Assembly (NCBI GenBank): GCA_902798815.1
Contig: CADBYH010000001.1
Span: 5,554-69,553, forward strand
DNA from: an uncultured Erysipelotrichaceae bacterium
GTDB lineage: Bacteria; Bacillota_I; Bacilli_A; RF39; UBA660
Length of the DNA stretch: 64,000 nucleotides
Direction of reading: 5' to 3'
Below, one piece after another: positions 8,538 through 50,170 of this stretch. Position 1 is the stretch's first letter; every line of letters begins with the position of its first letter. The position numbers were made by a program, and so were the translations under genes. The notes beneath the pieces are model-generated. The model saw nothing but the letters and a program-made list of their open reading frames with translations, did no database searches and was not told the origin of the DNA.

Positions 8538-9881
8538 ATGAGTAAAGAGTATTTGAAATATATATTTTTATTTATTTATTATTTTGTATGTCTAACTACA
8601 GTTTATTTTGTGTTTAGAATGGATGCTTATAGTAATTATGCCTTTAGTTATGGTATAGTAACAGGTAGTATTCCATATATAGATTTTAACCCGATAGTAC
8701 CACTATTTGGTCCGTTTCTATATAGTGTATTATTAATATTTAATCATTCAATAATTGTTTTTTATTTAGAACAAACAATTCTTTTATTAATAATGACATA
8801 TCTATTATTTAAGATATTAGATGAGAAAGCATGGATAGTAGTAGTATGTTTATTTTCACCATTAATAATTCCATTTGCTTATTGCTTATTTCCAGGATAT
8901 AACTTTCTAATATTATTTGAATTAGTATTATTACTATATCTAAATAAGTATAATAAAAGTGATAAATTAATAGGATTAGTATCAGGAATAACTATTATTA
9001 CTAAACATAACATAGGTATATTTATATTTTTAATTAGTTTACTTTTTAGTATTAAAGATAAAAAAAAATTATTAAATAGATTTTTATTTGGATTAATTCC
9101 AGGAGTATCGTTTTTATTTATAATACTTTTATATGGAAATCTATATGAATTTATAGATTTATGCTTGCTTGGAACATCTGATTTTATAAATAATATAACC
9201 ATAGACTTAATGTCTTTAGTATTATTAATAATATTTATAGTAGTAATGGTTATAAAGTTTATTAAAGATAAGAATAAAAATATAAGTTACTTTTATTTAT
9301 TAACGTATCTATTAGTGGTATTCCCATTATTTGATACCTATCATGTTTCTTTATTTTTAATGTTTTTGGTAATAGTATTTTTATATAATAGTAATTTTAG
9401 TATTAAGAATAAATATATACCAATAATATCATTTGTAATAATAAATATATTTATAGTTTTTTGGTTTATGTTGGGAATAGATTATTATAAAAGATTTAGA
9501 ATATATAATTACAATAATTTTGAAATAGTGTTATTAGAAAAGAAGGAAAAGGAAAATGTTGATAACTTAAATAAATATCTAAAAAATAAAAATTATACTA
9601 TTATAAGTATTCCTTCCAAAACTACATTTTTATTAATTTCTAATAATAAAAAGGTTGATATTTTTTTAGTACTTTTTAGAGGTAATTATGGAAGTAAAGG
9701 AAAATATAAGGTTATGGAGAAAATAAATAATAAAAAAGATTATTATTTTGTAGTAGATACTAGCATTAATTGTAAAGGTAAAGAGAATTGCCAATATTTA
9801 GAAGAAATACAAGAATATATAAGAAAGAAATATAAATTAGTTAAAGAAATAGACTATTATAAAATTTATTATAAAAAGTAA
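8538..9881 (+). CDS. polytopic membrane protein, tandem paralog 1 of 5 (possible GT-C-like glycosyltransferase/polymerase)
   Basis: About 11-13 hydrophobic segments and a soluble C-terminal domain of about 110 aa. Shared family motifs: FSYGIVTGSIPYIDFNP, PGYNF, LIGLVSG..IITKHNIGI, LCLLG, DTYHVS, GNYGSKG, and a C-terminal YKIYYKK. Confidence 0.6.
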   Translation: MSKEYLKYIFLFIYYFVCLTTVYFVFRMDAYSNYAFSYGIVTGSIPYIDFNPIVPLFGPFLYSVLLIFNHSIIVFYLEQTILLLIMTYLLFKILDEKAWIVVVCLFSPLIIPFAYCLFPGYNFLILFELVLLLYLNKYNKSDKLIGLVSGITIITKHNIGIFIFLISLLFSIKDKKKLLNRFLFGLIPGVSFLFIILLYGNLYEFIDLCLLGTSDFINNITIDLMSLVLLIIFIVVMVIKFIKDKNKNISYFYLLTYLLVVFPLFDTYHVSLFLMFLVIVFLYNSNFSIKNKYIPIISFVIINIFIVFWFMLGIDYYKRFRIYNYNNFEIVLLEKKEKENVDNLNKYLKNKNYTIISIPSKTTFLLISNNKKVDIFLVLFRGNYGSKGKYKVMEKINNKKDYYFVVDTSINCKGKENCQYLEEIQEYIRKKYKLVKEIDYYKIYYKK

Positions 9882-9895
9882 ATGGAGGAGATAAT

Positions 9896-11239
9896 ATGAA
9901 TAAAAAAAGAATAATTAAATATATATTATTATTTCTATTCTTTTATGTATCCCTGGTATTTATATTTACTTTATCAAGAAGTGATACATTTGTTAACTTT
10001 GGATTTAGTTATGCAATATCCAAAGGACAAATACCATATAGGGATTTTAATATGGTAATAACTCCATTTGCACCTTTTTTATATTCTATAGGTTTATTAA
10101 TGTGTAATAATATTTTAGTATATTATTTAGAACAAGCATTATTGTTAACATTGTTATTTTATTATATTGATAAAATACTTGGTAAAAAGAGTATATTATT
10201 TTTGTTGATTCTAATAATTCCATATCCTATTGCAATGTCATCTATTTTATTTCCGGGATATAATTATATTGTAGTATTATTGCTTGTTATGTTTATTTAC
10301 TATTTCAAAAATAATAAAAATGACTACCTATTGGGATTAATTTTAGGCTTTATATTTTGTACAAAACAAACTATGGGTATTGTTTTATTTGTTCCTACTT
10401 TTTATTTTTTAATAAAAGATAGAGAAAAATTTAAAAAGATGTTTATTGGATACATTATTCCTATTATTATTTTGTTTATATACTTGATTATTACAAAGAG
10501 TTTATATGTTTTTTATGACTTGTGTTTTTTAGGCCTGTTTGATTTTAATAAAAGTAACAATAATATAGATATTTATTATTTGTTATTATTTATTCTAGGT
10601 GTTGTTTATTTGCTGTTTAGAATTATAAAAGATAAGAATAATATTTTATTATATTATATACTTTTATATAGTTTGGTAGTGTTTCCAATAGTTGATTATT
10701 ATCATACATCTATTTTTTTGATAATAATATTTTTAATTATTCTTGATGATTATAATTTAAAAAGAGATATATTTAAATATATTGTTATTATAATAGCAGC
10801 CATTTCTGTTTTATGGCTTTTCGTAACTTATTATTTTTTGAGACCTATATCTATAAGAAATTATAATAATTTTTCATTAGTAATAAATGAGAAATCATAT
10901 AATGATAATAGTTATAAATTAATAAAATATACTAGTAGATTAGATAAAAAAGTAATATTTTTTATGAGAGGATCAGAAAACTTTTTTTATAAGATTACAT
11001 GTGATAAAAAATTAAATTATTATGATTTGCCAAATTATGGTAATTATGGATATAATGGTATAGAAAAAATTAAGAATAGGATTAAGAATGAACATGATTG
11101 TTATTTTGTAATTGATAGAGTTCTTGTTAAAAACAATAGTTCAGAGCAACAATATATAAAGGAACTTGGACAGTACGTAATTAAACATTCTAGATTAATA
11201 AAATCAATTGGATTATATGATATTTATTACAAGGAGTAA
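9896..11239 (+). CDS. polytopic membrane protein, tandem paralog 2 of 5
   Basis: Same motif set: FSYAISKGQIPYRDFNM, PGYNY, LLGLILG..FCTKQTMGI, LCFLGLFDFN, DYYHTS, GNYGYNG, YDIYYKE. Confidence 0.6.
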   Translation: MNKKRIIKYILLFLFFYVSLVFIFTLSRSDTFVNFGFSYAISKGQIPYRDFNMVITPFAPFLYSIGLLMCNNILVYYLEQALLLTLLFYYIDKILGKKSILFLLILIIPYPIAMSSILFPGYNYIVVLLLVMFIYYFKNNKNDYLLGLILGFIFCTKQTMGIVLFVPTFYFLIKDREKFKKMFIGYIIPIIILFIYLIITKSLYVFYDLCFLGLFDFNKSNNNIDIYYLLLFILGVVYLLFRIIKDKNNILLYYILLYSLVVFPIVDYYHTSIFLIIIFLIILDDYNLKRDIFKYIVIIIAAISVLWLFVTYYFLRPISIRNYNNFSLVINEKSYNDNSYKLIKYTSRLDKKVIFFMRGSENFFYKITCDKKLNYYDLPNYGNYGYNGIEKIKNRIKNEHDCYFVIDRVLVKNNSSEQQYIKELGQYVIKHSRLIKSIGLYDIYYKE

Positions 11240-11241
11240 GT

Positions 11242-12552
11242 ATGGAGATTATTAAAAAGAATTATAAATATTTGTTGTTATTCATCTTTTTTATAAGCGT
11301 ATTGATATTTTTTGGATTTAATAATATGGATAATATTTGGAACTATGGTTTTAGTCATGCTATAAGAATTGGAGAAGTACCATATAAAGACTTTAATATT
11401 ATATCAACCCCATTGTTTTCTTTTATAATGTCATTAGGTTTATTTATATATGATAGTTATATTGTATTTGTTTTAGAACAGGCTTTATTATGTACGTTAT
11501 TATTTTGCTTTTTAGAAAAAATGTTTTCAAAAAACTCAACACTCGTATTAGCTTTTTTTTCATTTCCAATTTTTTATTCATTGTTTCCTAATTATAATTT
11601 TTTAGTTTTATTACTTATGACAATACTTTTATTTTTAGAAAATAATAATAAAGAAAGTGAATATTTAATAGGATTTGTACTTGGTTTATTGATTCTTTCT
11701 AAACACACTATAGGTATAATGATTTTGATATGTAGTTTGATATCATGTTTTGATAAAAAAAAGATAATTAAAAGAATATGCAGCAGCTTTATACCGATAT
11801 TGTTTTTTGTTATCTATTTATTTTTAACGAATTCAATGAATAGTTTTATTAATTTATCTATATTGGGATTATTTGACTTTAATAAAAATAATTTCTCAAT
11901 ATCATTTATATATATAATAATATTACTGGCAATTGGAATTCATTTACTTGTTATGTTTAAAAAAGATATAAATAATAGAAATAATTATTATTTATTATCA
12001 TCATTTGCATTTGTTATTCCAATATGTGACTCATTTCATTTATGTTATCTAATAATTATATATGTTATGGTGATTTTATTAAATTATAATATTAAACCAT
12101 CTAATACAATTATGTATGTATCGGTATTAATTGTTTTTTTAACAATAATACTTAATATAATAGTCAATTATAAAGTGTATAAAAGAATTGATTTATGTAA
12201 ATTAAATCATTTTGAAGGTTTTATAATTGTTAAAGATAATAGGGATTTTTTGGATGATATAAATAGACAATATAGAAGTGGGAATAATAATTTTATGTTT
12301 TCTTTTTCTAATATGTTTTTTGATATTGCTTCTGATCATAAAATCACATATTATGATGTACCATTAAATGGCAATTATGGTTATAAAGGGATGGATATGA
12401 TGAAAACAAAGATTGATTCACTTCATAATATATATTTTTATATAGAAGACAATAAAAATGTTCAATATGCAAGAAAAATATATAAGTATATTAAAGAAAA
12501 AGGTGATAAAAAAGCAACAATTTATAATTACGAGGTATATTACATTAAATAA
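11242..12552 (+). CDS. polytopic membrane protein, tandem paralog 3 of 5
   Basis: Same motif set: FSHAIRIGEVPYKDFNI, PNYNF, LIGFVLG..ILSKHTIGI, LSILGLFDFN, DSFHLC, GNYGYKG, YEVYYIK. Only 2 nt separate it from paralog 2. Confidence 0.6.
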   Translation: MEIIKKNYKYLLLFIFFISVLIFFGFNNMDNIWNYGFSHAIRIGEVPYKDFNIISTPLFSFIMSLGLFIYDSYIVFVLEQALLCTLLFCFLEKMFSKNSTLVLAFFSFPIFYSLFPNYNFLVLLLMTILLFLENNNKESEYLIGFVLGLLILSKHTIGIMILICSLISCFDKKKIIKRICSSFIPILFFVIYLFLTNSMNSFINLSILGLFDFNKNNFSISFIYIIILLAIGIHLLVMFKKDINNRNNYYLLSSFAFVIPICDSFHLCYLIIIYVMVILLNYNIKPSNTIMYVSVLIVFLTIILNIIVNYKVYKRIDLCKLNHFEGFIIVKDNRDFLDDINRQYRSGNNNFMFSFSNMFFDIASDHKITYYDVPLNGNYGYKGMDMMKTKIDSLHNIYFYIEDNKNVQYARKIYKYIKEKGDKKATIYNYEVYYIK

Positions 12553-12599
12553 TATAATTATTGTGATATAATTGATAATAGGAAAGGAGAATAAAATAT

Positions 12600-13931
12600 A
12601 TGAAGAAGATATTACTAGAAAACTATAAATATATTTTATTCTTTATTTTTGTTTTATTTTTGTATTCATATGTATTAGTACCTGATTTAGTATTTGATGC
12701 AACATGGGAATTTGGAATGGCTCATGCTATAAAAATAGGTGAAATCCCATATTTGGATTTTAATACAGTATCAACTCCTTTTTATATTATGTTTCATTCT
12801 ATTTTTTTGCATATAAGTGATTCATTTTATTTTTATTTATTTATTAATGGAATAATATGTACAATTATTTATGCTTTATATGACAAAATAAATGATAATA
12901 ATTCATTTCTTTGTTTATCAATTTCACTTTTATTATTATATAGAATATTTATTCCATCATATAATTTTATGGCTTTTTTTATAATTGTATTATTAATATA
13001 TCTTGAAAAAAAGCAAAAAAATGATTATCTTATTGGATTTGTTTTAGGTTTACTTTTCTTAACTAAACATACGATAGGTTTACCAGTAATTGTTTTATCT
13101 ATGTTTGGACAAAGAGATTATAAGAAAGTAATTAAAAGAATTATAGGAATTATAATTCCTTGTTTTATCTTTTTGATGTTTTTATTTATTACAAATAGTT
13201 TTAAAAGTTTTTTAGATTTGTGTATATTAGGACTATTTAATTTTAATAGTAATAATAAGAATTATATTAATGTTTTTTTAATAATGAGTATTATTGTATT
13301 AATAATATCTTTATTTCACATAGTAAGATATAAAGATATTAAATACTATTATTTAATTGGTGCATTTTCATTTGTAATACCAATATGCGATCTTTCTCAT
13401 TTTTCATTTTTATTTGCATTATTTATGTTATGTGAGTTTGGAAATGTTCCTGGTAGAATAAAATATAGTAATATTATTTCTTTTATAATAATAATAATTC
13501 CAATTATATTTCAATTAATGTTATATAATTATTATTTTAAAAATATAACCTATATGAATGATAAGCATTTTAAATACTGTTTAGTTAACAAAAATAGTTA
13601 TTCCGAATTTAAGAGTATTTTGAATAAATATAAACAATATAAAAGTAATTCTACAATCATTGATTTTTCAGCAATTAAATATGATATTATTTTGGATAAA
13701 AAAATAAATTATTATAATATATTATTAACTGGTAATTATGGATTAAATGGCTCTAAGGTGCTTATTAAAGATATAAATAAATCTAAAGATCATTACTACA
13801 TTATTACGAAGAATATTTATTATAATAGAAATTATATATCACAAATAGATTATGATGTTATTGATTATATATATAGTAATTTAGAAAAAGTCGAGGAGGA
13901 CAATTTATATTATGTTTACTACAAAAAATAA
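12600..13931 (+). CDS. polytopic membrane protein, tandem paralog 4 of 5
   Basis: Same motif set: MAHAIKIGEIPYLDFNT, PSYNF, LIGFVLG..FLTKHTIGL, LCILGLFNFN, DLSHFS, GNYGLNG, YYVYYKK. Confidence 0.6.
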   Translation: MKKILLENYKYILFFIFVLFLYSYVLVPDLVFDATWEFGMAHAIKIGEIPYLDFNTVSTPFYIMFHSIFLHISDSFYFYLFINGIICTIIYALYDKINDNNSFLCLSISLLLLYRIFIPSYNFMAFFIIVLLIYLEKKQKNDYLIGFVLGLLFLTKHTIGLPVIVLSMFGQRDYKKVIKRIIGIIIPCFIFLMFLFITNSFKSFLDLCILGLFNFNSNNKNYINVFLIMSIIVLIISLFHIVRYKDIKYYYLIGAFSFVIPICDLSHFSFLFALFMLCEFGNVPGRIKYSNIISFIIIIIPIIFQLMLYNYYFKNITYMNDKHFKYCLVNKNSYSEFKSILNKYKQYKSNSTIIDFSAIKYDIILDKKINYYNILLTGNYGLNGSKVLIKDINKSKDHYYIITKNIYYNRNYISQIDYDVIDYIYSNLEKVEEDNLYYVYYKK

Positions 13932-15246
13932 AAAAAAAATATTTATTTATATAATTTCGTTTATATTTATATTAATATATTCTTTGTTTTTTGTGCCTTT
14001 AACGGCTAATGAAATATGGAATTATGGATTTAGTTATGCAATTGTAAAAGGTGAAATATTATATAATGATTTTAATTTAATAATAGGACCTTTTTATCCT
14101 TTATTTATGAGTATTTCTTTATTAATTAAAAATTGCTTATTTAATTATCTGTTTTTTAATTCTATAATTATTTTAATGGCATTAATTACTTTATATAAAA
14201 TGTATGATAAAAAAGTTATTATTTCCATTATTATACTTTTGTTTTTTCCTTCTTTAGTTTGTCCGTCATATAATCAGTTTATAATATTTTTAATAATATT
14301 CATTGCATATTTAGAAAAATCGGAAAGTGGGTATAAAGATATACTCATAGGGATTTTATTGTCTATTAGTTTTTTTACTAAACAGAATATAGGTATTTTT
14401 CTTATTTTACCTTCAATATTTTTTTATAAGAAAAACAATAATAAGGAAAGAATTATGGGTTTTATTATTCCTACAATTATTTTTCTATTATATTTTATTA
14501 TTACTAAGTCTTTAAAAAATTATATAAATCTTTGTATATTAGGTTTATTAGAGTTTGGTAATAAGAATAACTTAGTTATTGTGTCTTGTTTAATTGCTTT
14601 TATAATAATCTTAATAATATCAGTTGTGTGTTTGCTAAAGAATAAGTCTAATATATCATTATATTATTATTTAATGGGATACTTGGTTATCCTACCAATA
14701 TTTGATTATATACATTTATATTTTGTTATATTTATTTTTTCGTTATTAATTATAGATGTTTATAAATTTGATGTATTAGATATGAGAGTAATAAGAGTTT
14801 GTTTATATTTTCTAATATTAAATATATTGATCATTGAATCTCAAAGATTATCGCTATCGACATTTAAATATCCTAATAATATAAATCATTTACAACTAAG
14901 ATATATTCCAAGTAATGAATTGAAATATTATAAAAAAGTTATTAATTATTTAAATGGAGAAGATTTTTTGATTTATTCTGACGTTAATTATTTGTATAAA
15001 ATTGCTTTAGATAAAAAAATAAGTAATTATGATATTGTTAATTATGGGAATAATGGTATTGGTAGTAAGGGTAAAATTGTTGACTTTATTAAAAAAAACA
15101 AGCAATTATATTTAATTCCTAATAATCTATCAAAGTGTATTGAAGATAATATATGTCAGGTTGATAAAGAAGGGTATGATTATATAATTAATAATTTGAT
15201 ATTAATTGATAGTATTGGAGAGTTTTATGTTTATGAGAATAAATAG
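13912..15246 (+). CDS. polytopic membrane protein, tandem paralog 5 of 5
   Basis: Same motif set: FSYAIVKGEILYNDFNL, PSYNQ, LIGILLS..FFTKQNIGI, LCILGLLEF, DYIHLY, GNNGIGSKG. Overlaps paralog 4 by 20 nt. RBS GAGGAGGA lies upstream. Confidence 0.6.
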   Translation: MFTTKNKKKIFIYIISFIFILIYSLFFVPLTANEIWNYGFSYAIVKGEILYNDFNLIIGPFYPLFMSISLLIKNCLFNYLFFNSIIILMALITLYKMYDKKVIISIIILLFFPSLVCPSYNQFIIFLIIFIAYLEKSESGYKDILIGILLSISFFTKQNIGIFLILPSIFFYKKNNNKERIMGFIIPTIIFLLYFIITKSLKNYINLCILGLLEFGNKNNLVIVSCLIAFIIILIISVVCLLKNKSNISLYYYLMGYLVILPIFDYIHLYFVIFIFSLLIIDVYKFDVLDMRVIRVCLYFLILNILIIESQRLSLSTFKYPNNINHLQLRYIPSNELKYYKKVINYLNGEDFLIYSDVNYLYKIALDKKISNYDIVNYGNNGIGSKGKIVDFIKKNKQLYLIPNNLSKCIEDNICQVDKEGYDYIINNLILIDSIGEFYVYENK

Positions 15247-16648
15247 AAAAAAAATATTCTTAATAATTGTTTTTATAATTTATATATCTATAATTAGCTT
15301 TATGTTTTTTTACCATGAAAATTGGCGTGATGAAGCTCAAGCATATCTAATATGTAGAGATATGAATTTTTTTCAAATAATAAAAAATGTACATTATGAA
15401 GGACATCCTATTTTTTATTATTCAATATTATATCCTCTAGTAAAATTAGGAGCAGGTCCAAAAATTGTAAATATATTATCTATTATATTTATGTCTATTG
15501 CCGTATTTATTATATTGTTTCTATCTAAGTTAAATAATATCCAAAAATTATGCTTTATAGTATCATATCCTGTGTTATTTGAATTTAGTGTTGTTGGTAG
15601 AAGTTATTCATTGATATTTTTGTTGTTAACGTTAGTAGGTTTAATATATCAATATAAAGATGAATATCCAATTATTTATGCTATTTTATTGGGTTTATTG
15701 CTTAATACTCATTTATTAATGATTGGTTTTGTAGGTATTTGCACATTGTTTTATATAATTGATATGGTTAAGGATAAAAAGTATAATACTAAAAATATAA
15801 TTGGATTAATTATTATTGGTATTTTTGGAGTGTTATTGTTAATACAATTTGTACCAATTTTTATATATAAAGATGGATTAAATACTGGAACTGATTTTAG
15901 TATATTTGAAATTATATCTTATTTTATATTATCTTTATATTATAAATCTTTGAATACCAGTTTTATTAAGTTGGCTATATCTATTATATTTACTAACTTA
16001 ATCTATATGGTTATATATAAAGCAGATAAAAAAGTTTTTTTAATAATTCTAATGAGTTATATTTACATTTCAGTATTACTTTCATACATATTTAATGCGA
16101 TAAGTATTTATAATATTGCTTTAGTATATTCAATTATGCTTTGTTCTTTATTAATGATTGATAGAAAAATATTTGATAATAAACATATAACAATTTATTT
16201 ATCAATATTATCAATATTATCATTAGATTATATAGTATTATCAATAAATAATGAATTAAAGTATAATTATTCTAATAGTATAGAGGTATCAAAATATATA
16301 AATGATAACATTGATAAAAATGCAACAATTATATGTAATTGTGATCATATGTGTTCATCAATAGTTCCTTATGTAAAAAATAAGTTTTATCATACTAATT
16401 CAAAAAAATTCTTTACTTATATAGTATGGACAAGGGATAGAGATTTAGTTCCTGATATGAATGATATATATAATTTTATTGATAATAGTAATGATGATTT
16501 ATATTATATATATACAGGTTATAATAAAGAGGATATTGATATAGTTAATTCATTAAAGAAAAAATATTTGATAGAAAATATATATGAAATATATAAATAT
16601 TCTTATACAGATCGAGAATATATAATATATAAGATAAATAAAGATTAA
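15227..16648 (+). CDS. polytopic membrane protein of a different family, GT-C-like (ArnT/PMT-type first-loop acidic motif)
   Basis: Multi-TM protein with HENWRDEAQAY in the first loop, resembling the DE-containing loop-1 motif of GT-C glycosyltransferases, and a soluble C-terminal tail. Start taken at ATG 15227 after RBS GGAGAG. Alternative starts are 15206 and 15233. Confidence 0.5.
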   Translation: MFMRINRKKIFLIIVFIIYISIISFMFFYHENWRDEAQAYLICRDMNFFQIIKNVHYEGHPIFYYSILYPLVKLGAGPKIVNILSIIFMSIAVFIILFLSKLNNIQKLCFIVSYPVLFEFSVVGRSYSLIFLLLTLVGLIYQYKDEYPIIYAILLGLLLNTHLLMIGFVGICTLFYIIDMVKDKKYNTKNIIGLIIIGIFGVLLLIQFVPIFIYKDGLNTGTDFSIFEIISYFILSLYYKSLNTSFIKLAISIIFTNLIYMVIYKADKKVFLIILMSYIYISVLLSYIFNAISIYNIALVYSIMLCSLLMIDRKIFDNKHITIYLSILSILSLDYIVLSINNELKYNYSNSIEVSKYINDNIDKNATIICNCDHMCSSIVPYVKNKFYHTNSKKFFTYIVWTRDRDLVPDMNDIYNFIDNSNDDLYYIYTGYNKEDIDIVNSLKKKYLIENIYEIYKYSYTDREYIIYKINKD

Positions 16649-42069: not shown

Positions 42070-43995
42070 ATGATAAGAAGAAAAATTCGTAGATATCGTA
42101 GACTTTTCATATTGATTATTATAACTTTTATTACTGCAGTAACTCTTGCAGTAGAAACATATGCTTGGTTTGTTGGTCTTTCAACCGCATCAACAAATGA
42201 ATTCACAATTTCAATTTCATCTCCTGATGGACTTGAATTATCTCTTAATGGTTCTTATTGGACAAATGGTAATTCACCATTATTAATAAAAGATACAAAT
42301 CATACCTATATAACAGAAACAGGATGTAGTAATGCTAATTGTGCATATAGTGGAAATACAAATAGATATCCAACATCCTTAGTTCCTGTATCAACCATAG
42401 GTGAAATAGATACAACAACAAGTAAATTAAAACTCTTTGAAGAATCAAGTTTATCTGCTAATGAAGGAGGATATTATGTTAGATCATCTCAAGTATCTAA
42501 TTCATCAACAGAAGAAAATAAATATGTAGCATTTGACCTATTTATAAGAAATGGAAAAAGATCAGGTTATAATGGAACATATAATATGAATGAAGAAGAG
42601 GATGTTTACCTATCAGCAGATTCATTTGCCACAACTAATATAAGCGGAAACACTCCAGATTATGGAGCTGCAAATTCTTTAAGAGTAGGATTCTTTGAAA
42701 TAGGAAGAGTAGCATCAAGTGGATATACAGCATCAGATATCACAGGAGCAACATGTACATCAACAAATTCAAATGTAACAAAACTATGTACAGGATCATC
42801 AAATATGATAAAAACAGGAACAACACTATATACAAATGATGAATTACAAGCAAGTACATGGAATATTTGGGAACCAAACCATGCATCCCATACAACAAAT
42901 TTAGTAAACTATTATAATGCATCATGTAGAGGAAGAGCTACTGCAACAGCATATTCAGCACAATGTTCGCAATTAGATACAGGATCAAGCAAAAAAACAT
43001 ATGGAATGAAAAGTGCAATCAATGTAAGTACAGTAAATGTATATGATGGAGATGATATAAATGGATATACAGCATCATCAACATATTTAAGTGAAGTAAA
43101 AACATATAAGACATCGGATGCAACCACAACAAGTGAAGCAAAACAACCAATTCTAAAACTAGCAGGAAACTCAATTACAAAAGTAAGAGTATATATTTGG
43201 TTAGAAGGACAAGATATAGATAATTATGATATTATTTCTAAAAACCCATCAGTAAAAGTAAAATTTGGATTAACAAAAGATAGATATGGAGTAGATGATA
43301 CAAATAATACATCAATAAATACAAGGACATCATCATTCCAAGATGATTCATGGGCAAAGATAAAATCAAATGTTCAAAATAACAATACAACTCAATATAA
43401 TGTTGGAGATATGAAAACAATAAGAATAAATGGTAATGAATATAGATTAAGATTGGTAAATAAAACATCACCAGTAGATCCATGTCATATTACTTCAAAA
43501 TCACAAACAGCATGTGGATTTGTAGTAGAGTTTGTAGATATCGTAGAAAATAGAAGAATGAATTCAACAAATACAAATGTGGGTGGATGGCCTGCAACGG
43601 AATTATATACATATCTACAAGGAACATTCTATAATAACCTACCAAGTGATTTGAAATCGGCAATAGTTAATACTAGAGTAATATCAGGGTATGGATCAGG
43701 TGACTCATCAAACTTTACAACAACAGATAAATTATATTTATTGTCAAACAAAGAATTGTCTGTATCTGAAGATTATGAGTCATCAGTAAGTGAAACAAGA
43801 ACTTTGGATTATTATGTGGATAAGTCAGCGACTGATAAAACTAAAAAAAATAATCCATATTGGTTACGTTCGGCCTATCATTATAATAGCTCACATTTTT
43901 ATAGTGTACGATCTGCTGGTGGCATTTATTATGGTTATGATGCTCCTATTACTACTACAAGTCTCGGAGTTGCACCAGCTTTCCGTATTGGATAA
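42070..43995 (+). CDS. secreted/anchored protein with TasA/camelysin-like (SipW-type) N-terminal signal region and a C-terminal DUF6273-like domain
   Basis: N-terminus RRKIRRYRRLFILIIITFITAVTLAVETYAWFVG. Ser/Thr/Asn-rich middle. The C-terminal domain of about 220 aa (DSWAKIKSNV...ACGFVVEF...WLRS...APAFRI) is shared with ORF 48914-50170. Confidence 0.6.
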   Translation: MIRRKIRRYRRLFILIIITFITAVTLAVETYAWFVGLSTASTNEFTISISSPDGLELSLNGSYWTNGNSPLLIKDTNHTYITETGCSNANCAYSGNTNRYPTSLVPVSTIGEIDTTTSKLKLFEESSLSANEGGYYVRSSQVSNSSTEENKYVAFDLFIRNGKRSGYNGTYNMNEEEDVYLSADSFATTNISGNTPDYGAANSLRVGFFEIGRVASSGYTASDITGATCTSTNSNVTKLCTGSSNMIKTGTTLYTNDELQASTWNIWEPNHASHTTNLVNYYNASCRGRATATAYSAQCSQLDTGSSKKTYGMKSAINVSTVNVYDGDDINGYTASSTYLSEVKTYKTSDATTTSEAKQPILKLAGNSITKVRVYIWLEGQDIDNYDIISKNPSVKVKFGLTKDRYGVDDTNNTSINTRTSSFQDDSWAKIKSNVQNNNTTQYNVGDMKTIRINGNEYRLRLVNKTSPVDPCHITSKSQTACGFVVEFVDIVENRRMNSTNTNVGGWPATELYTYLQGTFYNNLPSDLKSAIVNTRVISGYGSGDSSNFTTTDKLYLLSNKELSVSEDYESSVSETRTLDYYVDKSATDKTKKNNPYWLRSAYHYNSSHFYSVRSAGGIYYGYDAPITTTSLGVAPAFRIG

Positions 43996-44056
43996 TATTG
44001 GTTTTTAAATAAAACATGCTATAACAACCACATATTAATAGAGATAAGAAATATAT

Positions 44057-44572
44057 TTATAATCCATAACTTCTTGTTATCTGATCTATAAATAAATGTG
44101 TTTTAGGAGGATAATAAGTAAGGTGAGTAAATATAATATAACTAATTAATATTAAAGAAATTCCTATTTCCTTTTGGTTAGGAATTTCTTTTTTATTTAA
44201 TAATTTATAACTAACTATTTCAGAAAAAATATAAGTTAAAAACATAATGATTATCGCAATATAAAAATTATGTGGAACAAATATATCTATAATTAAATAA
44301 ATAACTAAATAAAATATAATTCCACAAACTGCAGAAATAGGTATACTAATTATAAAATTATTAGTAGAAATATCTTTCTTCTTATAAATGAAATATTCAA
44401 TTATACTAGATAATAATATACTGGTATAAATTATTTTCATATGTTCCCAAATACTTTCGTTTACAGGAAACATAATACTTGTTATAAAGCAGGGAAATTT
44501 ATCATAAACAAAATGAATTGGAAATGATAAACAAAACATTATTAATATCATTAAAATCTTAATCTTTTTCAT
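44057..44572 (-). CDS. small polytopic membrane protein (possibly DUF6512-like)
   Basis: 171 aa with about 5 TM segments and an ESIWEHMKI motif. Divergent from the LysR operon. Confidence 0.45.
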   Translation of the reverse strand: MKKIKILMILIMFCLSFPIHFVYDKFPCFITSIMFPVNESIWEHMKIIYTSILLSSIIEYFIYKKKDISTNNFIISIPISAVCGIIFYLVIYLIIDIFVPHNFYIAIIIMFLTYIFSEIVSYKLLNKKEIPNQKEIGISLILISYIIFTHLTYYPPKTHLFIDQITRSYGL

Positions 44573-44627
44573 ATTAAAAATATATAAATATTCTAAATAT
44601 AGTATACATAAACTATTTTTATATTAA

Positions 44628-44656
44628 TTGACTTTTATATAAATGTATAATATAAT
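44628..44656 (+). promoter_or_regulatory. near-consensus sigma-A promoter for the LysR / radical-SAM / NADAR-DHH operon
   Basis: TTGACT (44628-44633), a 17-nt spacer, then TATAAT (44651-44656). RBS GAGGGG lies 5-6 nt before the ATG at 44676. Confidence 0.6.
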
Positions 44657-44675
44657 ATGTCGCGAGGGGATAACT

Positions 44676-45569
44676 ATGAATACTGATTATAACTTATATA
44701 AGATATTTCTTTATTTATATGAAGAAAAAAGTATATCGAAAACAGCTAATAAACTATATGTATCACAACCGGCAATTAGTTATAGTTTAAAAGAATTAGA
44801 AAACCAACTAGGATACACATTGTTTTATAGAAATAGTAAAGGAATAGAGCCAACTTTAGAGGCTAAAGAATTATATTCATATATCTCAACTGCCTTTAAT
44901 ATTTTACATGATGCAGAAGAGCATATTAAGAATTTAAATAGTCTAAACATTGGTTGTATAAGAATAGGTACTCCATCACATATCGGAGTATTCTATCTAT
45001 CAAATTATATAGTAGATTTTAGAAAGATATATCCAGGTATTAAATTTGAAATTGTATGTAAATCAACATCAGATTTAGTAGATATGTTAGAAACAAGAAA
45101 ATTAGATATTATAGTTGATACTTTACCAATTAATAGTAAAAAAGAAGTTACTAAGGTTACATTATCAAAATTACAAAACTGTTTTGCATACAATAAAAAC
45201 ATTATGAAAAATGTTGATATTAAAAGTGTTTCTGATTTAAAGAATTATCCATTAATATTACCAAGTGCAACTTCATCAATCAGACTTAAACTTGATGAAT
45301 ATATGGAATCTCAAAATGCAAAATTAATGCCAATTTTAGAGTCTTGGACAACAGAATTGATGGTTGAAATGGTAAGAAAAGGTGTAGGAATTGGATATTT
45401 TATTAAAAACGTTATTGATACTCAAAATGATAAAGAGAATTTTGAAGTAATAACTTTTGATAATGATCTTCCAGCTGTTGATGTATGTTGTGTCTATATT
45501 TCAGACTTCTTAACAACAGCAACAAAAAAATTTGTAGAAATATTAACAAGTGATAAAGTAGGGGAATAG
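44676..45569 (+). CDS. LysR-family transcriptional regulator
   Basis: N-terminal wHTH (LYKIFLYLYEEKSISKTANKLYVSQPAISYSLKELENQLGYTLF) plus a periplasmic-binding-protein-like effector domain. The track start at 44643 would lie inside the promoter. Confidence 0.88.
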   Translation: MNTDYNLYKIFLYLYEEKSISKTANKLYVSQPAISYSLKELENQLGYTLFYRNSKGIEPTLEAKELYSYISTAFNILHDAEEHIKNLNSLNIGCIRIGTPSHIGVFYLSNYIVDFRKIYPGIKFEIVCKSTSDLVDMLETRKLDIIVDTLPINSKKEVTKVTLSKLQNCFAYNKNIMKNVDIKSVSDLKNYPLILPSATSSIRLKLDEYMESQNAKLMPILESWTTELMVEMVRKGVGIGYFIKNVIDTQNDKENFEVITFDNDLPAVDVCCVYISDFLTTATKKFVEILTSDKVGE

Positions 45570-45572
45570 TAT

Positions 45573-47204
45573 ATGATGGATTTTTTATTAAGTGATGAAA
45601 CAAATATCTCAAAAGAAGATTTAGAGACAAGAAGAAAATTATATGATATATTTATGGATTTACCAGAGAACTTTGTATCAAAAATGAGACATCTTCAACC
45701 ACAAGTAGGATGCTTCAATAATTGTAGTTTTTGTAGTAAATTTTCTGTATGTAAAAGTGAGTATTGGCCATTATCTTCATTAAGAAATATAATAAGTGCC
45801 TTAAAATACACATCAAAGAATTATACATCAGATGATTTATTATTAGCTTATGATAGAAAAGAACATAGAATTGGAGTTATCTTTCCATATTTAAATAATG
45901 ATATAGCAGCATACCCTCATTTATATGAATTTATTGATTTATGTTATAGAGAATTAAGTGTAAGAACTAGAATCTCAACAGTAGGATTCTCTAGACACAA
46001 TAAAGTTTTAAATGAAATGCATAAAAAGATATGTTCTAGTGATTTATTATATGCTCTAGGAGGAGTAAGATTATCAATTAGTCAATATGGTAGAGTATGG
46101 GAAGAACAATCTTCAAAAAACTCTTTAGATGATTATTGTAAAGACATAGCTAACTTTTTAACTATTTATAAACCATATTATGATAAATTTGGATCTGGAT
46201 CTAGAAGAATGTGTTGTGAATTAAGATTTAATCCACTAGTGGAAAATAGTAAAGTACTAACTTTTGAACATAATGATAAATTTGTTATCGCAACAAGTAA
46301 TTATTTATACATATCAGAAGATGATAATATAGCTTTTGAAGAAACCTTTATAAAAGATCCTTATGTTCATTCCTTAGAATTAACTACAAAAGGTATTAAT
46401 TTCACTGAATATAATTTACCATTTAAAGTAGATACAAAAGAAGAATTAATAAAATATATTGATGAAAATGAATTAGAAACCGAAAGAAAAGTTGAAGTAT
46501 ATTTATTTACTAATAAAGATGGACTATATTATTCGATAGATCCAAAACTAACAACTGAAGGAAATTTTGGAATTAATATCTATCCTGAAACTGATATACG
46601 TACTAAATCAGGTTATATTATTACAGAAAGATTTCTTTTAAATGCTTTATATAATTTCAAGAAAACTAAAAATCTAGCTTTAAGAGATTCGTATAAAAAC
46701 GCAACATATGAAGATATAGATGAAGTAATAAGTATCTTAAAAGAGTATTCAAATTACTATCAAGAAAAGAATAAATTAGAAAAAAGCAATTATATAATTA
46801 ATCATGTAATTCCAGTATTAGAAGTATATGTAAAAGCATTAAAACTTGCTAATTACAAACCAGAAGTATTCTTTGATAAGAATTTCACTATAGACACTGG
46901 TATGATATGTAATTTAGGAAGAGCAATAAATCTTTTTAAAGGTATAACTAAATTTATAAACGAACCATTAACTCCAATTCATGAAAGAAACTATGGAAGA
47001 CACTGTTCTACAATGAAACAAGAAAACTATGTATGGTTACTTGGATGTGGTTTCCATGATAATATCTTAATTGAAAAATTAGATTTATTTAATACAGCAT
47101 CAATAGAAGGACAAGTATCTATTAAGAAAAAAATCCAAATAGAAGGATTTAATAATAAAATAAGTGAAGAAGAAAAATACTTATATCCAGGAGAAACAGA
47201 ATAA
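45573..47204 (+). CDS. radical SAM-type protein with long uncharacterised C-terminal extension (543 aa)
   Basis: Canonical CxxxCxxC cluster motif in the expected N-terminal context (QPQVGCFNNCSFCS). Plausible downstream core strands are VIFPYLNNDIAAYP, RISTVGFS and VRLSISQYG. About 340 aa after the core have no recognisable motif. Confidence 0.6.
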   Translation: MMDFLLSDETNISKEDLETRRKLYDIFMDLPENFVSKMRHLQPQVGCFNNCSFCSKFSVCKSEYWPLSSLRNIISALKYTSKNYTSDDLLLAYDRKEHRIGVIFPYLNNDIAAYPHLYEFIDLCYRELSVRTRISTVGFSRHNKVLNEMHKKICSSDLLYALGGVRLSISQYGRVWEEQSSKNSLDDYCKDIANFLTIYKPYYDKFGSGSRRMCCELRFNPLVENSKVLTFEHNDKFVIATSNYLYISEDDNIAFEETFIKDPYVHSLELTTKGINFTEYNLPFKVDTKEELIKYIDENELETERKVEVYLFTNKDGLYYSIDPKLTTEGNFGINIYPETDIRTKSGYIITERFLLNALYNFKKTKNLALRDSYKNATYEDIDEVISILKEYSNYYQEKNKLEKSNYIINHVIPVLEVYVKALKLANYKPEVFFDKNFTIDTGMICNLGRAINLFKGITKFINEPLTPIHERNYGRHCSTMKQENYVWLLGCGFHDNILIEKLDLFNTASIEGQVSIKKKIQIEGFNNKISEEEKYLYPGETE

Positions 47205-48487
47205 TGAGTATAGATTTTTATAAAGAATTTGGAGAATTAGGCTATTTAGCAAATTATTCTAATCATGGTTTTTATAAAGATAACGTATACTATAAAACAG
47301 TAGAGCACTTTTATCAAGCAAGTAAGTTTGATAACAAAAAGATTAAAGAAAAAATAATAAATTGTTCTACTCCAAAAGAAGCATCTAATATAGGTAGAGA
47401 TAGAAATAATATTAGAATTGCTAATTTTAAAGATATTAAATTAGATGTAATGTATGAAGGTATTTATTTAAAATTTACTCAAAATAAAGATATTAGATCA
47501 AAGCTTATTGAAACAAGAAATAATCAAATAAGAGAAATGAGCGTTAAAGAATCATTCTGGGGAATAGGTCCTAATCTTGATGGAGAAAACCATATTGGAA
47601 TAATTTTAGAAAAAGTTAGAGATCAAGTAAAAAAAGATGTGCTTAATAATATTATAAATAATTGTAAAAATAAAAAAGTATATATAATTGGTCATCATAA
47701 ACCAGATGCAGATTCTATCTTTTCAGCATATATATTATCTAATATATTAAAAAGTTTAGGAATTGATGCAGTCTTTTCTGTAAGAGATGAAGAATTAGTT
47801 GATAAAGAATTAATAGATGATTACTTGAAAGAAGATTATGAAGTAATAGATGATTATAATGATAAACACTTTATTTTAGTTGATCATAATAATTTGGATG
47901 GAATACCAAAAGAAAATGTTATAGGAGCAATAGACCATCATAGAATTACAAATGATGTAGATGAATTAATAGAAATAGAATATGCTTCATGCTTATTATT
48001 AATATATGATTTGTTTAAAGATATCTATAAATTTGATGAAAAAGAAAAAGAATTAATTGCTTTAAGCGTTTTATCAGATACAGAATATTTAACTAGTTCA
48101 AGATTTACATCAGAAGATCAATCTTTATACAAAGAATTAAATGTTAGTATAAATGAAAATGAATTAAGAAAAAAATATTTCAAAACTACAGATTTCTCAA
48201 ATAATATTAAAGACAATTTATATAAAGATTATAAAGAATATGATTTTCATAATAAACATATAAAAAGAAGTCTAATAAAAAGCTATTCAAAAGATAAAGA
48301 TGAATATTATGATTCATATACAAATAGTATGAAAAGTAATATTATAAATTTATTAATCTGGTGTGATTACGAGAAATTAATAACATATTTTAATTATAAT
48401 GGTATTAATTTAACATATCCTTCGTTCACAACAAGTACTTATTTAATATTAGATTATTTAGAAAAACAAAAATATCTTAGTAAATAA
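47204..48487 (+). CDS. fusion protein: N-terminal NADAR (YbiA-like) domain plus C-terminal DHH/DHHA2 phosphoesterase
   Basis: NADAR blocks: LANYSNHGF, TVEHFYQASKF, PKEASNIGR, VMYEGIYLKFTQN, ESFWGIG..GENHIGIIL. DHH motifs: IIGHHKPDADSIFSAY, LVDHNN, AIDHHR. A DHHA2-like LSDTEYLTSS also follows. Start overlaps the radical-SAM stop (TAATG). Confidence 0.75.
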   Translation: MSIDFYKEFGELGYLANYSNHGFYKDNVYYKTVEHFYQASKFDNKKIKEKIINCSTPKEASNIGRDRNNIRIANFKDIKLDVMYEGIYLKFTQNKDIRSKLIETRNNQIREMSVKESFWGIGPNLDGENHIGIILEKVRDQVKKDVLNNIINNCKNKKVYIIGHHKPDADSIFSAYILSNILKSLGIDAVFSVRDEELVDKELIDDYLKEDYEVIDDYNDKHFILVDHNNLDGIPKENVIGAIDHHRITNDVDELIEIEYASCLLLIYDLFKDIYKFDEKEKELIALSVLSDTEYLTSSRFTSEDQSLYKELNVSINENELRKKYFKTTDFSNNIKDNLYKDYKEYDFHNKHIKRSLIKSYSKDKDEYYDSYTNSMKSNIINLLIWCDYEKLITYFNYNGINLTYPSFTTSTYLILDYLEKQKYLSK

Positions 48488-48642
48488 GATGTTTTTTTTA
48501 TTATATAAAACTTCATAAAAAAATTTTATCTACTTTTATACATATAAATAATTTTTATAAATACTATCAAAAATATATGTTTGATTTATATAATGAATGT
48601 AGATATTATGTTATTAAGAGAACTTTATGAAAAGGTGATTAT

Positions 48643-48822
48643 ATGAATGGGCAAAGTATATATACTTATTTAGATTCTAAAAAGATATATTTTATTTCTA
48701 AAAGAGGAAAATATATGTTAATAGAAAAAAATAATACTAAAAAAGTATTAAGTTTAGTATCAAGAAATACAGTAGTAATTGATAAAAATAATGGTATTTT
48801 GTTATTTCCAAATGACAAGTAA
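48643..48822 (+). CDS. unannotated small ORF (59 aa), below the ORF-track cutoff
   Basis: ATG at 48643 preceded by RBS AAAGGTGA at a 6-nt spacing. Encodes MNGQSIYTYLDSKKIYFISKRGKYMLIEKNNTKKVLSLVSRNTVVIDKNNGILLFPNDK. Followed by a short hairpin AAAGAG/CTCTTT and a T-run. Confidence 0.4.
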   Translation: MNGQSIYTYLDSKKIYFISKRGKYMLIEKNNTKKVLSLVSRNTVVIDKNNGILLFPNDK

Positions 48823-48852
48823 AAAGAGTTTATCTCTTTTTTTTTATATCGA

Positions 48853-48881
48853 TTGACTAATTTGCATATTTTTTTTATAAT
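48853..48881 (+). promoter_or_regulatory. near-consensus sigma-A promoter for the second DUF6273-like gene
   Basis: TTGACT (48853-48858), a 17-nt spacer, then TATAAT (48876-48881), about 30 nt before the ATG at 48914. Confidence 0.6.
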
Positions 48882-48913
48882 TGTACTAGTAGATAAGGCA
48901 GGAGAGACGTACT

Positions 48914-50170
48914 ATGAAAAAGAGAATGAAGAAAAAAGATGTACAAATACTTTTGTTTATTCTAATAGCATTTGTTTCATTAAGTATAAGTTATGCTGCT
49001 ATTACAAGCATTATTTTAACAATTAATGGTACTGCAAGTGCAGAGGCAGATGATATAAATTTTAAAGTTCATTTTGATAGATCTGTAAGTCCTACTATGA
49101 CCGTAAATAAAGGTAGCGCAGAGATAGACGAATATGATGATAAGATTGCTCATTTTAATGTTAATAATCTTGAAGGTACAGGAGACTCTGCAACAGCTGA
49201 ATACACAGTAATAAATGAATCAAATGGAATAGGAGCACGTATTAATTTAGATTTAACAAATACAAATACAGAATATTTTAGAGTAACAGAAACAATAGAT
49301 GATATAGAACTACAAGCAGGAGATACAACAAAAGTAAGAATAGTTGTAGAATTAATAAAAGAGCCAACCAATCATGAAGAAACAACAGAAATTATTGGTA
49401 CATTAACTGCAAGAGCGGTACAAAATGGATCTGCAAATTCATCAGTAAGCGATACAGTAACAGGACATAAACCAAATTACTTTGCAACAGATTCATGGAG
49501 TACAATTCAGACAAACATAAGAAATAATAATATAGATAGATATAATATAGGAGATACAAAAACTGTAAGTATAGACGGAAATGATTACACAGTTAGAGTA
49601 TCAAACAAATCAACTGCATCAAATTGTAGTAATGCCAATTACTCCCAAACAGCATGTGGATTCGTAGTAGAATTTACTGGAGCAGTTGCAAACTCTCCAA
49701 TGTATGGTAATTCAATAGAAACAGCATCTAATAATATAGGATATCAATCAACGTTAGTATATTCTTATCTTGAAAACACACTTTATAATAAACTTCCTGA
49801 AGATTTACAAAATGTAATATCAAATACAAGACTTATTGAAAATCATGTTGATCAATTAGATGTTAGAGTATATATTTTATCTGCAAAAGAAGTATTTAAT
49901 TATGATCAATCAAGTGAGAATGATCTAAGTACACAACTAGATTATTATTCAGAGAATGAAGTATCTGTTCCAAGTAATGATCCAAATACAGTAAACAACA
50001 ATAGATTCACAATAAAAACTTCTATAGATGACAATAGAATATATTGGTGGTTAAGATCACCATATAAAGATGATAACCAAAGTTTTCAGCAAGTAACAGA
50101 TGGAGGATATTTATATAAGATGTATTCACATTATAATGATTATGTTTCTCCAGCATTCAGAATATCTTAA
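48914..50170 (+). CDS. secreted/anchored protein with C-terminal DUF6273-like domain (paralog of 42070-43995)
   Basis: N-terminal signal/anchor, then a beta-rich domain (INFKVHFD..., AEYTVINESNG...). The C-terminal blocks DSWSTIQTNI, ACGFVVEF, LYNKLPEDLQNVISNTR, WWLRS and SPAFRI parallel those of ORF 42070. Confidence 0.6.
   Translation: MKKRMKKKDVQILLFILIAFVSLSISYAAITSIILTINGTASAEADDINFKVHFDRSVSPTMTVNKGSAEIDEYDDKIAHFNVNNLEGTGDSATAEYTVINESNGIGARINLDLTNTNTEYFRVTETIDDIELQAGDTTKVRIVVELIKEPTNHEETTEIIGTLTARAVQNGSANSSVSDTVTGHKPNYFATDSWSTIQTNIRNNNIDRYNIGDTKTVSIDGNDYTVRVSNKSTASNCSNANYSQTACGFVVEFTGAVANSPMYGNSIETASNNIGYQSTLVYSYLENTLYNKLPEDLQNVISNTRLIENHVDQLDVRVYILSAKEVFNYDQSSENDLSTQLDYYSENEVSVPSNDPNTVNNNRFTIKTSIDDNRIYWWLRSPYKDDNQSFQQVTDGGYLYKMYSHYNDYVSPAFRIS

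Follow-up and report, generated by a model that had tools for sequence, protein, structure and literature searches.

A three-gene operon of gut Bacilli combines a divergent radical-SAM enzyme with a NADAR::DHH protein: a possible nucleotide-centred pathway

The thmABC genes of Photorhabdus asymbiotica encode a radical S-adenosylmethionine (SAM) enzyme, a nucleoside kinase and a nucleoside triphosphatase, and make 4'-thiothymidine (PMC12691670). In this experimentally shown antibiotic pathway of Enterobacterales the triphosphatase gives self-resistance, and the ThmA radical-SAM enzymes are without significant homology to those of albomycin (PMC12691670). Ophion (OpnABC) is a validated defence system consisting of a radical-SAM enzyme, a PHP phosphoesterase and a phosphoribosyltransferase (PRTase) (bioRxiv 10.1101/2025.09.30.679545). 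GreA/B-C domains occur in defence proteins such as TPR-GreA/B-C-PIN and Bab/Agp (bioRxiv 10.1101/2024.11.07.622273). Here we describe an operon in a stretch of 64,000 nucleotides (the window) from the genome of an uncultured Erysipelotrichaceae bacterium (contig CADBYH010000001.1), which encodes a LysR-family regulator, a divergent radical-SAM enzyme termed X, and a protein in which a NADAR domain is fused to a DHH phosphoesterase domain (NADAR::DHH). The original prediction for this locus, made from the DNA letters alone, did not recognise the gene combination as a described system. This agrees with the full-text literature searched, where no description of a radical-SAM enzyme together with NADAR, GreA, kinase, CYTH or BrxR was found.

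Three co-directional open reading frames (ORFs) lie within positions 44628-48487 of the window, and their arrangement indicates that lysR, X and the NADAR::DHH gene form one operon. Its features are as follows.

44607-44625 (approximate), no strand assigned: dyad of the type TATAAA-N6-TTATA, in the window CATAAACTATTTTTATATT, recognised from columns at least 80% conserved in 31 upstream regions
44628-44656, forward strand: putative sigma-70-type promoter TTGACT-17 nt-TATAAT, read from the sequence (11 of 12 positions match), both hexamers kept in 31 loci
44676-45569, forward strand: LysR-family regulator of 297 amino acids, first gene of the operon (Pfam HTH_1 1.5e-16, LysR_substrate 5.5e-23)
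45573-47204, forward strand: X, divergent and unannotated radical-SAM enzyme of 543 amino acids, assigned by motif, conservation and predicted fold
47204-47650, forward strand: NADAR (YbiA-type N-glycosidase) domain of the third protein (Pfam NADAR 7e-30)
47669-48487, forward strand: DHH phosphoesterase domain (family II pyrophosphatase-like) with a poorly conserved C-terminal domain (Pfam DHH 1e-12)

Our best explanation, to which we assign a probability of roughly 0.5 as a whole, is that this is a single operon in which X modifies a nucleotide and NADAR::DHH hydrolyses it. The broader statement that a nucleotide-centred radical-SAM pathway is encoded here appears rather probable. For the X family as a whole, an inducible nucleotide-based role in conflict or defence falls a little short of even odds, and for the window's own clade we regard such a role as possible, with more reservation.

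The radical-SAM core of X comprises approximately residues 35-250, including the motif GCFNNCSFC (C47-X3-C51-X-F-C54) that had been pointed out as a CX3CX2C triad. Across 49 members, whose identity to the window protein is 22-65%, no columns other than those of C47, C51, C54, D110 and D191 are invariant, so that the triad is conserved among homologues. A deep search found the corresponding motif C-x-[NHQ]-x-C-x-[FMH]-C near the N-terminus in almost all members of at least 430 amino acids among the matches listed. Within the best-scoring 120 relatives, X is 63-99% identical and of uniform length. The mean column identity is 76%, with many invariant residues. The additional cysteines C60, C214, C446 and C492 are invariant within the close clade only, and an auxiliary Fe-S cluster as a family feature was ruled out, as some members have 3-4 cysteines in total.

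The motif had been described as textbook, a word that holds for the motif only, as no curated model recognises the protein as radical SAM. X is without a match in NCBIfam, PADLOC, the PDB sequences and Pfam (in the last even at E<=10), and maps to no characterised family in these libraries, housekeeping families included. A PDB profile search with X returned designed β-propeller repeats only, a spurious result caused by a blade-like motif ('DG-YYAI-P'). The Pfam radical-SAM model PF04055 does not reach its gathering threshold with X, and the window protein lacks a match to it even at E<=10. Below the threshold, PF04055 matches 19 of the 49 relatives (best E 1e-4), these matches beginning at the triad and covering model positions 3-114; scores in ten individually scanned members are at most 21 bits, compared with a cut-off of 29.5. 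This miss is a sensitivity limit of the model and not a structural mismatch.

A first AlphaFold2 model of X, built with 20 close sequences, had a mean predicted local distance difference test (pLDDT) value of 77, a disordered cysteine loop and no interpretable Foldseek result. A second model, built with 35 diverse sequences, reached a pLDDT of 91.9 and a predicted template modelling score of 0.90. Foldseek matches this model in the PDB to DesII, biotin synthase (BioB), HydG, PylB and BtrN (probabilities 0.75-0.97), and in BFVD to phage radical-SAM proteins (probability up to 0.99). All high-probability fold matches are radical-SAM enzymes, each spanning about 190-240 alignment columns, and the model displays a partial (β/α)6 TIM-barrel core (Foldseek E 0.003-0.05). 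No match was obtained for the C-terminal ~290 residues, whose predicted structure comprises a β-rich domain, a helical bundle and a second β unit. Motif, conservation and modelled fold together identify X as a true radical-SAM enzyme, albeit a highly divergent one, whose C-terminal half is novel and whose predicted activity is SAM cleavage.

X is a small isolated family and not the fringe of a large one, because an exhaustive HMMER profile search among 1.84 billion representative proteins yielded 205 clusters only. A scan of 185,579 species, each represented by one genome, contained 88 relatives, including two Veillonella genomes. Seventy-eight distinct loci from these 88 relatives, together with 5 loci from close homologues (P0110, P0084, P0071), were compared by means of our own ORF calls, clustering of the neighbouring genes and phmmer labels, with representatives checked against Pfam. 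The loci fall into the following classes.

Class C, 29 loci: gut and rumen Bacilli metagenome-assembled genomes including Candidatus Coprovivens (the window's clade); LysR, X and NADAR::DHH in 29 of 29
Class A/B, 36 loci: Clostridia, Veillonella tobetsuensis ATCC BAA-2400, Selenomonadaceae and other Bacilli; X and NADAR in 36 of 36
Class D, 5 loci: Saccharibacteria, another lineage of the Candidate Phyla Radiation (CPR), and Lonepinella; kinase, Gre and X with or without CYTH, no NADAR
Class E, 5 loci: Actinobacteria, CPR bacteria and Gemmatimonadaceae; ATP-grasp, X and NUDIX
Class F, 2 loci: Saccharibacteria; X and an alanyl-tRNA synthetase (AlaRS)-like protein

In 6 further loci X was detected without a recurrent partner (X being unlabelled in L080). 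Whether the radical-SAM gene and NADAR stay paired across genomes had been proposed as a check. Wherever a NADAR gene is kept, i.e. in 65 loci (29 of class C and 36 of class A/B), it directly follows X. Where X is at least 42% identical, NADAR follows it or is fused to it in every locus that keeps the downstream gene. Fusion proteins were found as X::NADAR and NADAR::X, i.e. in both orders, as kinase::X and X::NUDIX, and also as NADAR::Gre.

The recurrent partners carry the Pfam labels Thymidylate_kin, CYTH, NUDIX and GreA_GreB. Class A/B loci include a thymidylate-kinase-like kinase in 29, a GreA_GreB protein in 27 and a CYTH protein in 24 of the 36 cases, and sometimes add a class I/II aminotransferase or LysR. 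The kinase matches PADLOC models PDC-M51B (3e-30) and VakA, the viperin-associated kinase (5e-17). The Gre partner matches Pfam GreA_GreB with 8e-13. We take it to be a full-length GreA paralogue, which appears to align end to end with E. coli GreA and to keep the acidic tip motif (DLRENPEF vs DLKENAEY).

Two loci connect these classes with the window. L008 and L013 nest inside the NADAR::DHH clade in a rough, distance-based neighbour-joining tree of X, and contain LysR, X, NADAR, CYTH and kinase (L008 with an additional aminotransferase between NADAR and CYTH). An upstream ABC transporter is syntenic in L008, L011 and the window. Nesting and synteny together suggest that the DHH domain and the CYTH/kinase pair were exchanged in situ, the DHH domain having apparently taken the place of CYTH and kinase in the Bacilli clade. 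Such a swap would point to a required phosphate-removal step beside NADAR. The trio had been correctly read as an operon, and its description as self-contained needs amendment: by gene content it appears to be a reduced, lineage-specific variant, trimmed from a larger module of a viperin-associated-type kinase, X, NADAR, a GreA paralogue and CYTH.

The third protein was predicted as a fusion of NADAR with DHH/DHHA2, of which NADAR and DHH stand and DHHA2 does not, no model for the latter scoring. NADAR (PF08719) reaches 104.9 bits with a threshold of 35.1, and exceeds the cut-off of TIGR02464, the riboflavin-intermediate N-glycosidase model (99.9 vs 73.7 bits); its best PDB match is E. coli YbiA (2b3w, 3e-19). 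DHH (PF01368) reaches 48.8 bits with a threshold of 28.1. It is closest to the family II pyrophosphatases, i.e. the Mn-dependent enzymes (4e-9 in PDB), and scores far below the cut-off of the corresponding equivalog model (72.8 vs 283). DHH motifs I-IV (H-x3-D-x-D, D, DHH, D) are intact: among 28 orthologues, conservation is 95% or higher at H164, D168, D170, D227, D244-H245-H246 and D292. Neither a Pfam DHHA2 or DHHA1 match at E<=0.01 nor a GGGH motif was found in this protein. The alignment to pyrophosphatases ends at approximately residue 218 of 309, and across the C-terminal ~120 residues, past approximately position 305, no residue is 95% conserved in the 28 orthologues.

Truncated orthologues of 262-335 amino acids, which have lost part of the DHH region, occur in L005, L022, L029 and L060; in L060 the gene ends near the contig end, which might explain its truncation as an artefact. 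In some lineages the phosphoesterase half is possibly dispensable or decaying.

LysR exceeds the Pfam thresholds for both its domains, HTH_1 and LysR_substrate, and no NCBIfam equivalog reached its cut-off for the protein. Its start is the ATG at 44676, with a ribosome-binding site GAGGGG (44665-44670) in front. The first in-frame ATG at 44643 was rejected, as it lies inside the promoter. A LysR orthologue is located directly upstream of X in all 29 NADAR::DHH loci. The lysR stop codon TAG (45567-45569) is followed by 3 nt (tat) and the ATG of X at 45573, and the stop codon TAA of X (47202-47204) overlaps the ATG at 47204 by 1 nt (TAATG, 47202-47206). Both of these tight junctions had been described correctly.

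The same applies to the near-consensus promoter, with TTGACT at 44628-44633 and TATAAT at 44651-44656, separated by 17 nt. Two sites only with 11 of 12 matches were found by a consensus scan of 44000-49000, the operon promoter among them. The scan as a whole is not above chance, with 54 promoter-like sites compared with 49 expected, and in such AT-rich DNA (24% GC) a consensus match alone says little. When the 170-nt regions preceding the LysR start were aligned for the 31 related loci, both hexamers and the dyad located directly upstream of the -35 hexamer proved at least 80% conserved, the remaining intergenic sequence being unalignable. This dyad is a candidate LysR binding site of the T-N11-A-like type. 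Given a HTH_1 domain, a substrate domain and a dyad next to the promoter, binding of LysR to the dyad is predicted, and the operon is probably autoregulated by its own LysR protein. In the entire window, none of the Rfam families attains its gathering score (no tRNA, rRNA or riboswitch), hence no riboswitch appears to be involved. The window devoid of Rfam families nonetheless holds dcw-type genes (murG, ftsA and a penicillin-binding protein) and ruvAB-queA-tgt.

A fourth component of the operon may be encoded by a conserved small ORF, found by tblastn in 15 related loci:

48643-48822, forward strand: conserved ORF of 59 amino acids (MNGQSIYTYLDSKK...) downstream of the operon

It is kept whichever 3' module is present, even where CYTH and kinase take the place of DHH and in one locus without NADAR, and has no Pfam match.

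From these sequence data we infer the substrate class, the order of steps and the biological role as follows. X most likely modifies a nucleoside phosphate, because every recurrent partner acts on nucleoside phosphates. This is in line with the earlier idea of chemistry centred on a modified nucleotide, which each recurrent partner fits (thymidylate-kinase-like kinase, CYTH, NUDIX, NADAR and DHH). A [4Fe-4S] cluster held by C47, C51 and C54 would cleave SAM, and the resulting 5'-deoxyadenosyl radical would modify the nucleoside phosphate. The DHH domain may strip phosphate or pyrophosphate from the same molecule, and the YbiA-type NADAR domain may cut its N-glycosidic bond. NADAR::DHH would thereby either finish the pathway or hold a toxic nucleotide pool in check, and in the window variant it would unite both hydrolytic steps. 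Expression would be set by LysR from the conserved dyad as its probable site. In the wider module, the kinase would act first, directly followed by X and then by NADAR, as suggested by the fusion of either partner to X, with CYTH, DHH or NUDIX possibly removing phosphates. The GreA paralogue may imply that an intermediate or product reaches the active site of RNA polymerase, similar to a chain-terminating or mis-incorporated nucleotide.

A far-reaching version of this model, which we consider unlikely, sees in the X family a new line of antiviral radical-SAM enzymes that is independent of viperin. X would convert a nucleotide supplied by the kinase into a transcription-poisoning analogue, the dedicated GreA paralogue would excise this analogue from the stalled RNA polymerase of the host itself, and any excess would be degraded by NADAR, CYTH or DHH. 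The window operon (LysR, X, NADAR::DHH) would then represent that immune module in gut Bacilli, domesticated and reduced to a minimum.

A role in conflict is favoured by the very rare and patchy distribution of X, by the VakA-like kinase, and by the distant relatives in γ-proteobacteria. In 6 of 6 loci there (L085-L090; Vibrio vulnificus, Pseudomonas sp. WCS374, P. oryzihabitans, Yersinia enterocolitica, Providencia and Stenotrophomonas), a BrxR (WYL) regulator is encoded divergently upstream of X-Gre-kinase. Nearby are BREX genes, TerB, a UvrD-like helicase, patatin, Fic, transposases, integrases, a relaxase or P4-like genes, and all six loci lie in defence islands or mobile elements. LysR would accordingly appear to be the regulator in the window's clade where γ-proteobacteria have BrxR. 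A conserved, unannotated gene for ~264-334 amino acids often follows the γ-proteobacterial cassette, the copy in L090 carrying NYN and OST-HTH domains, and another gene for ~334-351 amino acids is found beside BrxR in the Pseudomonas and Stenotrophomonas loci. Some Clostridia cassettes adjoin large serine recombinases. In IMG/VR there is one distant X match, in an actinobacterial locus of 74% GC with ATP-grasp, X and NUDIX; given this near-absence, which speaks for a metabolic role, X is not a phage family.

Several findings weigh against our explanation, and against a conflict role in particular. The window flanks consist of housekeeping genes, namely an ABC transporter, murG, ftsA and a penicillin-binding protein upstream and ruvA-ruvB-queA-tgt downstream. 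Most of 115 non-redundant neighbours in Firmicute and CPR loci are likewise housekeeping genes such as tRNA synthetases, MutS and RuvB. Defence matches are few among these 115, the clearest being Mokosh next to the Veillonella cassette. A location in a defence island, which had been proposed as a check, was thus rejected for the operon of the window's clade and is found in the distant γ-proteobacterial relatives only. No kinase, Gre or CYTH gene is present in the operon or elsewhere in the window, and X stays under every curated radical-SAM threshold, with weak Foldseek E-values. The closest relative of the NADAR domain is YbiA, which acts as a riboflavin-intermediate N-glycosidase, and not a DarG-like enzyme, and a fusion of NADAR to the producing enzyme would fit consecutive steps better than pure self-protection. 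Finally, LysR, vertical inheritance and oxidative-stress neighbours (desulfoferrodoxin, ArsC/Spx-like) fit a metabolic role equally well.

The latter genes were observed in several class C loci (L001-L005, L016, L017 and L019), where genes for desulfoferrodoxin, an ArsC/Spx-like protein, glyoxalase and DUF4186 are repeatedly located directly in front of LysR and in the same orientation. They hint at a link to oxidative stress, which is itself not seen in the window.

These observations lead to the alternative that survives best, namely metabolite damage control or salvage, in which X is an anaerobic cofactor or nucleotide enzyme and NADAR::DHH a YbiA-like clean-up enzyme, with no role in conflict. 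NADAR::DHH would hydrolyse reactive ribosylamino-pyrimidines or damaged nucleotides as well as pyrophosphate, and LysR would sense a metabolite, as LysR regulators usually do. The TIGR02464 score and YbiA match of NADAR, the proximity of DHH to family II pyrophosphatases, the recurrence of desulfoferrodoxin, ArsC/Spx-like, glyoxalase and NUDIX genes beside the operon in the clade, the synteny of the locus among close relatives and its place in the core chromosome, to which this region of the window belongs, are all consistent with this alternative. Such a role is, however, difficult to reconcile with a family as rare and patchy as X (88 relatives in 185,579 species genomes, and two Veillonella genomes only), with distant relatives that are linked to BrxR in defence islands or mobile elements, with a partner kinase resembling viperin-associated kinases, and with a dedicated GreA paralogue, which is hard to account for in simple salvage. 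We consider damage control an improbable explanation, on a level with the antiviral version described above.

Less probable still is a thmABC-like pathway, which produces a nucleoside analogue as antimetabolite and makes the producer resistant to it. In this case X would be responsible for assembling the unusual nucleoside and the kinase for activation of the substrate, and the hydrolases (CYTH, NADAR, DHH, NUDIX) together with the GreA paralogue would shield the producer. The combination of radical-SAM enzyme, nucleoside kinase and protective triphosphatase in thmABC (PMC12691670) provides the precedent. In addition, an aminotransferase, ATP-grasp ligase or AlaRS-like ligase, all typical of peptidyl-nucleoside pathways, is encoded at other X loci. 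The precedent is one of architecture, and X-family members are labelled 'hypothetical protein' by NCBI. Moreover, no exporter is consistently linked to the X loci, BrxR is a regulator of defence systems, and the module is present in tiny CPR and RF39-like genomes.

A chance adjacency of three functionally unlinked genes, with X an inactive relic that keeps its cysteine motif, would agree with the truncated third genes (262-335 amino acids) and with L018, which is without NADAR, but the conservation and uniform length of X, the presence of all three genes in 29 of 29 clade loci, the multiple independent fusions and the conserved promoter already contradict it, and we regard it as very remote.

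Other genes of the window were noted in passing. Two proteins with a DUF6273 domain and N-terminal hydrophobic, signal-like segments bracket the operon (42070-43995 and 48914-50170, forward strand), and a DUF6512 membrane protein is encoded between the first of these genes and the promoter (44057-44572, reverse strand). Six tandem paralogous ORFs of ~436-480 amino acids occupy 8538-16648 (forward strand), the stretch of lowest GC content in the window (~19%). One of them displays a weak GT-C/PMT_2-like match, and the set resembles an expanded membrane glycosyltransferase-like family.

X thus adds a radical-SAM family that curated libraries do not recognise, with a unique C-terminal half of 290 residues. 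Conserved neighbourhoods and repeated fusions tie it with unusual strength to a NADAR N-glycosidase, a viperin-associated-type kinase, a CYTH triphosphatase and a full-length GreA paralogue. If the conflict role were true, radical-SAM nucleotide immunity would have arisen a second time and independently, to our knowledge for the first time with a built-in RNA polymerase rescue factor, and NADAR would gain a new substrate class. If the role is metabolic, gut Bacilli and CPR bacteria, both little studied, would possess a new anaerobic step of nucleotide or cofactor metabolism. X is carried by the cultured organisms Veillonella tobetsuensis ATCC BAA-2400, Vibrio vulnificus, Yersinia enterocolitica and Pseudomonas sp. 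WCS374.

In comparison with known systems, thmABC resembles in architecture both the kinase-X-CYTH loci and X with NADAR::DHH, including a phosphohydrolase that protects the host. It differs in being without NADAR, Gre and LysR, and no Photorhabdus protein is found among the X homologues in the matches listed. The theme common to Ophion is the teaming of radical-SAM chemistry with a metal phosphoesterase and an enzyme of ribosyl or nucleotide metabolism. Its radical-SAM enzyme is, however, related to viperin, its partners are PHP and PRTase instead of DHH and NADAR, and the two systems are not homologous gene for gene. The window NADAR resembles YbiA/COG3236 in exceeding the TIGR02464 cut-off and matching YbiA, and differs from it in the lack of a RibA/RibD fusion. 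It also weakly matches PADLOC PDC-M42C and NCBIfam DS32_2 (a score of 65, far below the cut-off of 240). Of the partners in the NADAR antitoxin systems DarT-NADAR and DS-32, neither DarT nor a PRTase is present, and the neighbours are LysR and X only. DS-32 (NADAR with PRTase) and Ophion were consequently rejected as the same system, since single themes only are shared. The DHH domain has motifs I-IV intact as in family II pyrophosphatases and DHH-DHHA2 proteins, with Mn-dependent pyrophosphatases as best sequence matches, and differs in its fusion to NADAR and in a DHHA2 domain that is neither recognisable nor conserved. As for the GreA/B-C defence proteins, a Gre module binding RNA polymerase may have been recruited to a conflict system in the wider X module too, in this case as a full-length GreA paralogue outside the window operon and not as the C-terminal domain of a large sensor.

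With viperin and its prokaryotic relatives (pVip) there are both differences and likenesses. No PADLOC model, viperin models included, matches X of the window or of γ-proteobacteria; X is not a viperin by this measure, and a sequence relation between the two is detectable at the superfamily level only. X is ~250 residues longer with its unique C-terminal half, and is tied to NADAR, obligately so in Firmicutes, as well as to a GreA paralogue and CYTH. The adjacent kinase typical of viperin is not in the window and is present in 29 of 36 class A/B and 6 of 6 γ-proteobacterial loci; a location in defence islands or mobile elements is likewise not seen for the window and other Firmicutes and is restricted to the γ-proteobacterial relatives. 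The likeness lies in the genetic coupling of a radical-SAM enzyme to a nucleotide kinase of the thymidylate kinase family, in the probable nucleotide-level substrate of X, and in distant X members residing in defence islands. The analogy with viperin, raised initially for radical-SAM enzymes in general, gains weight from the match of the partner kinase to VakA, and by this analogy viperin with CMPK2/VakA appears to be the closest functional counterpart of the X module.

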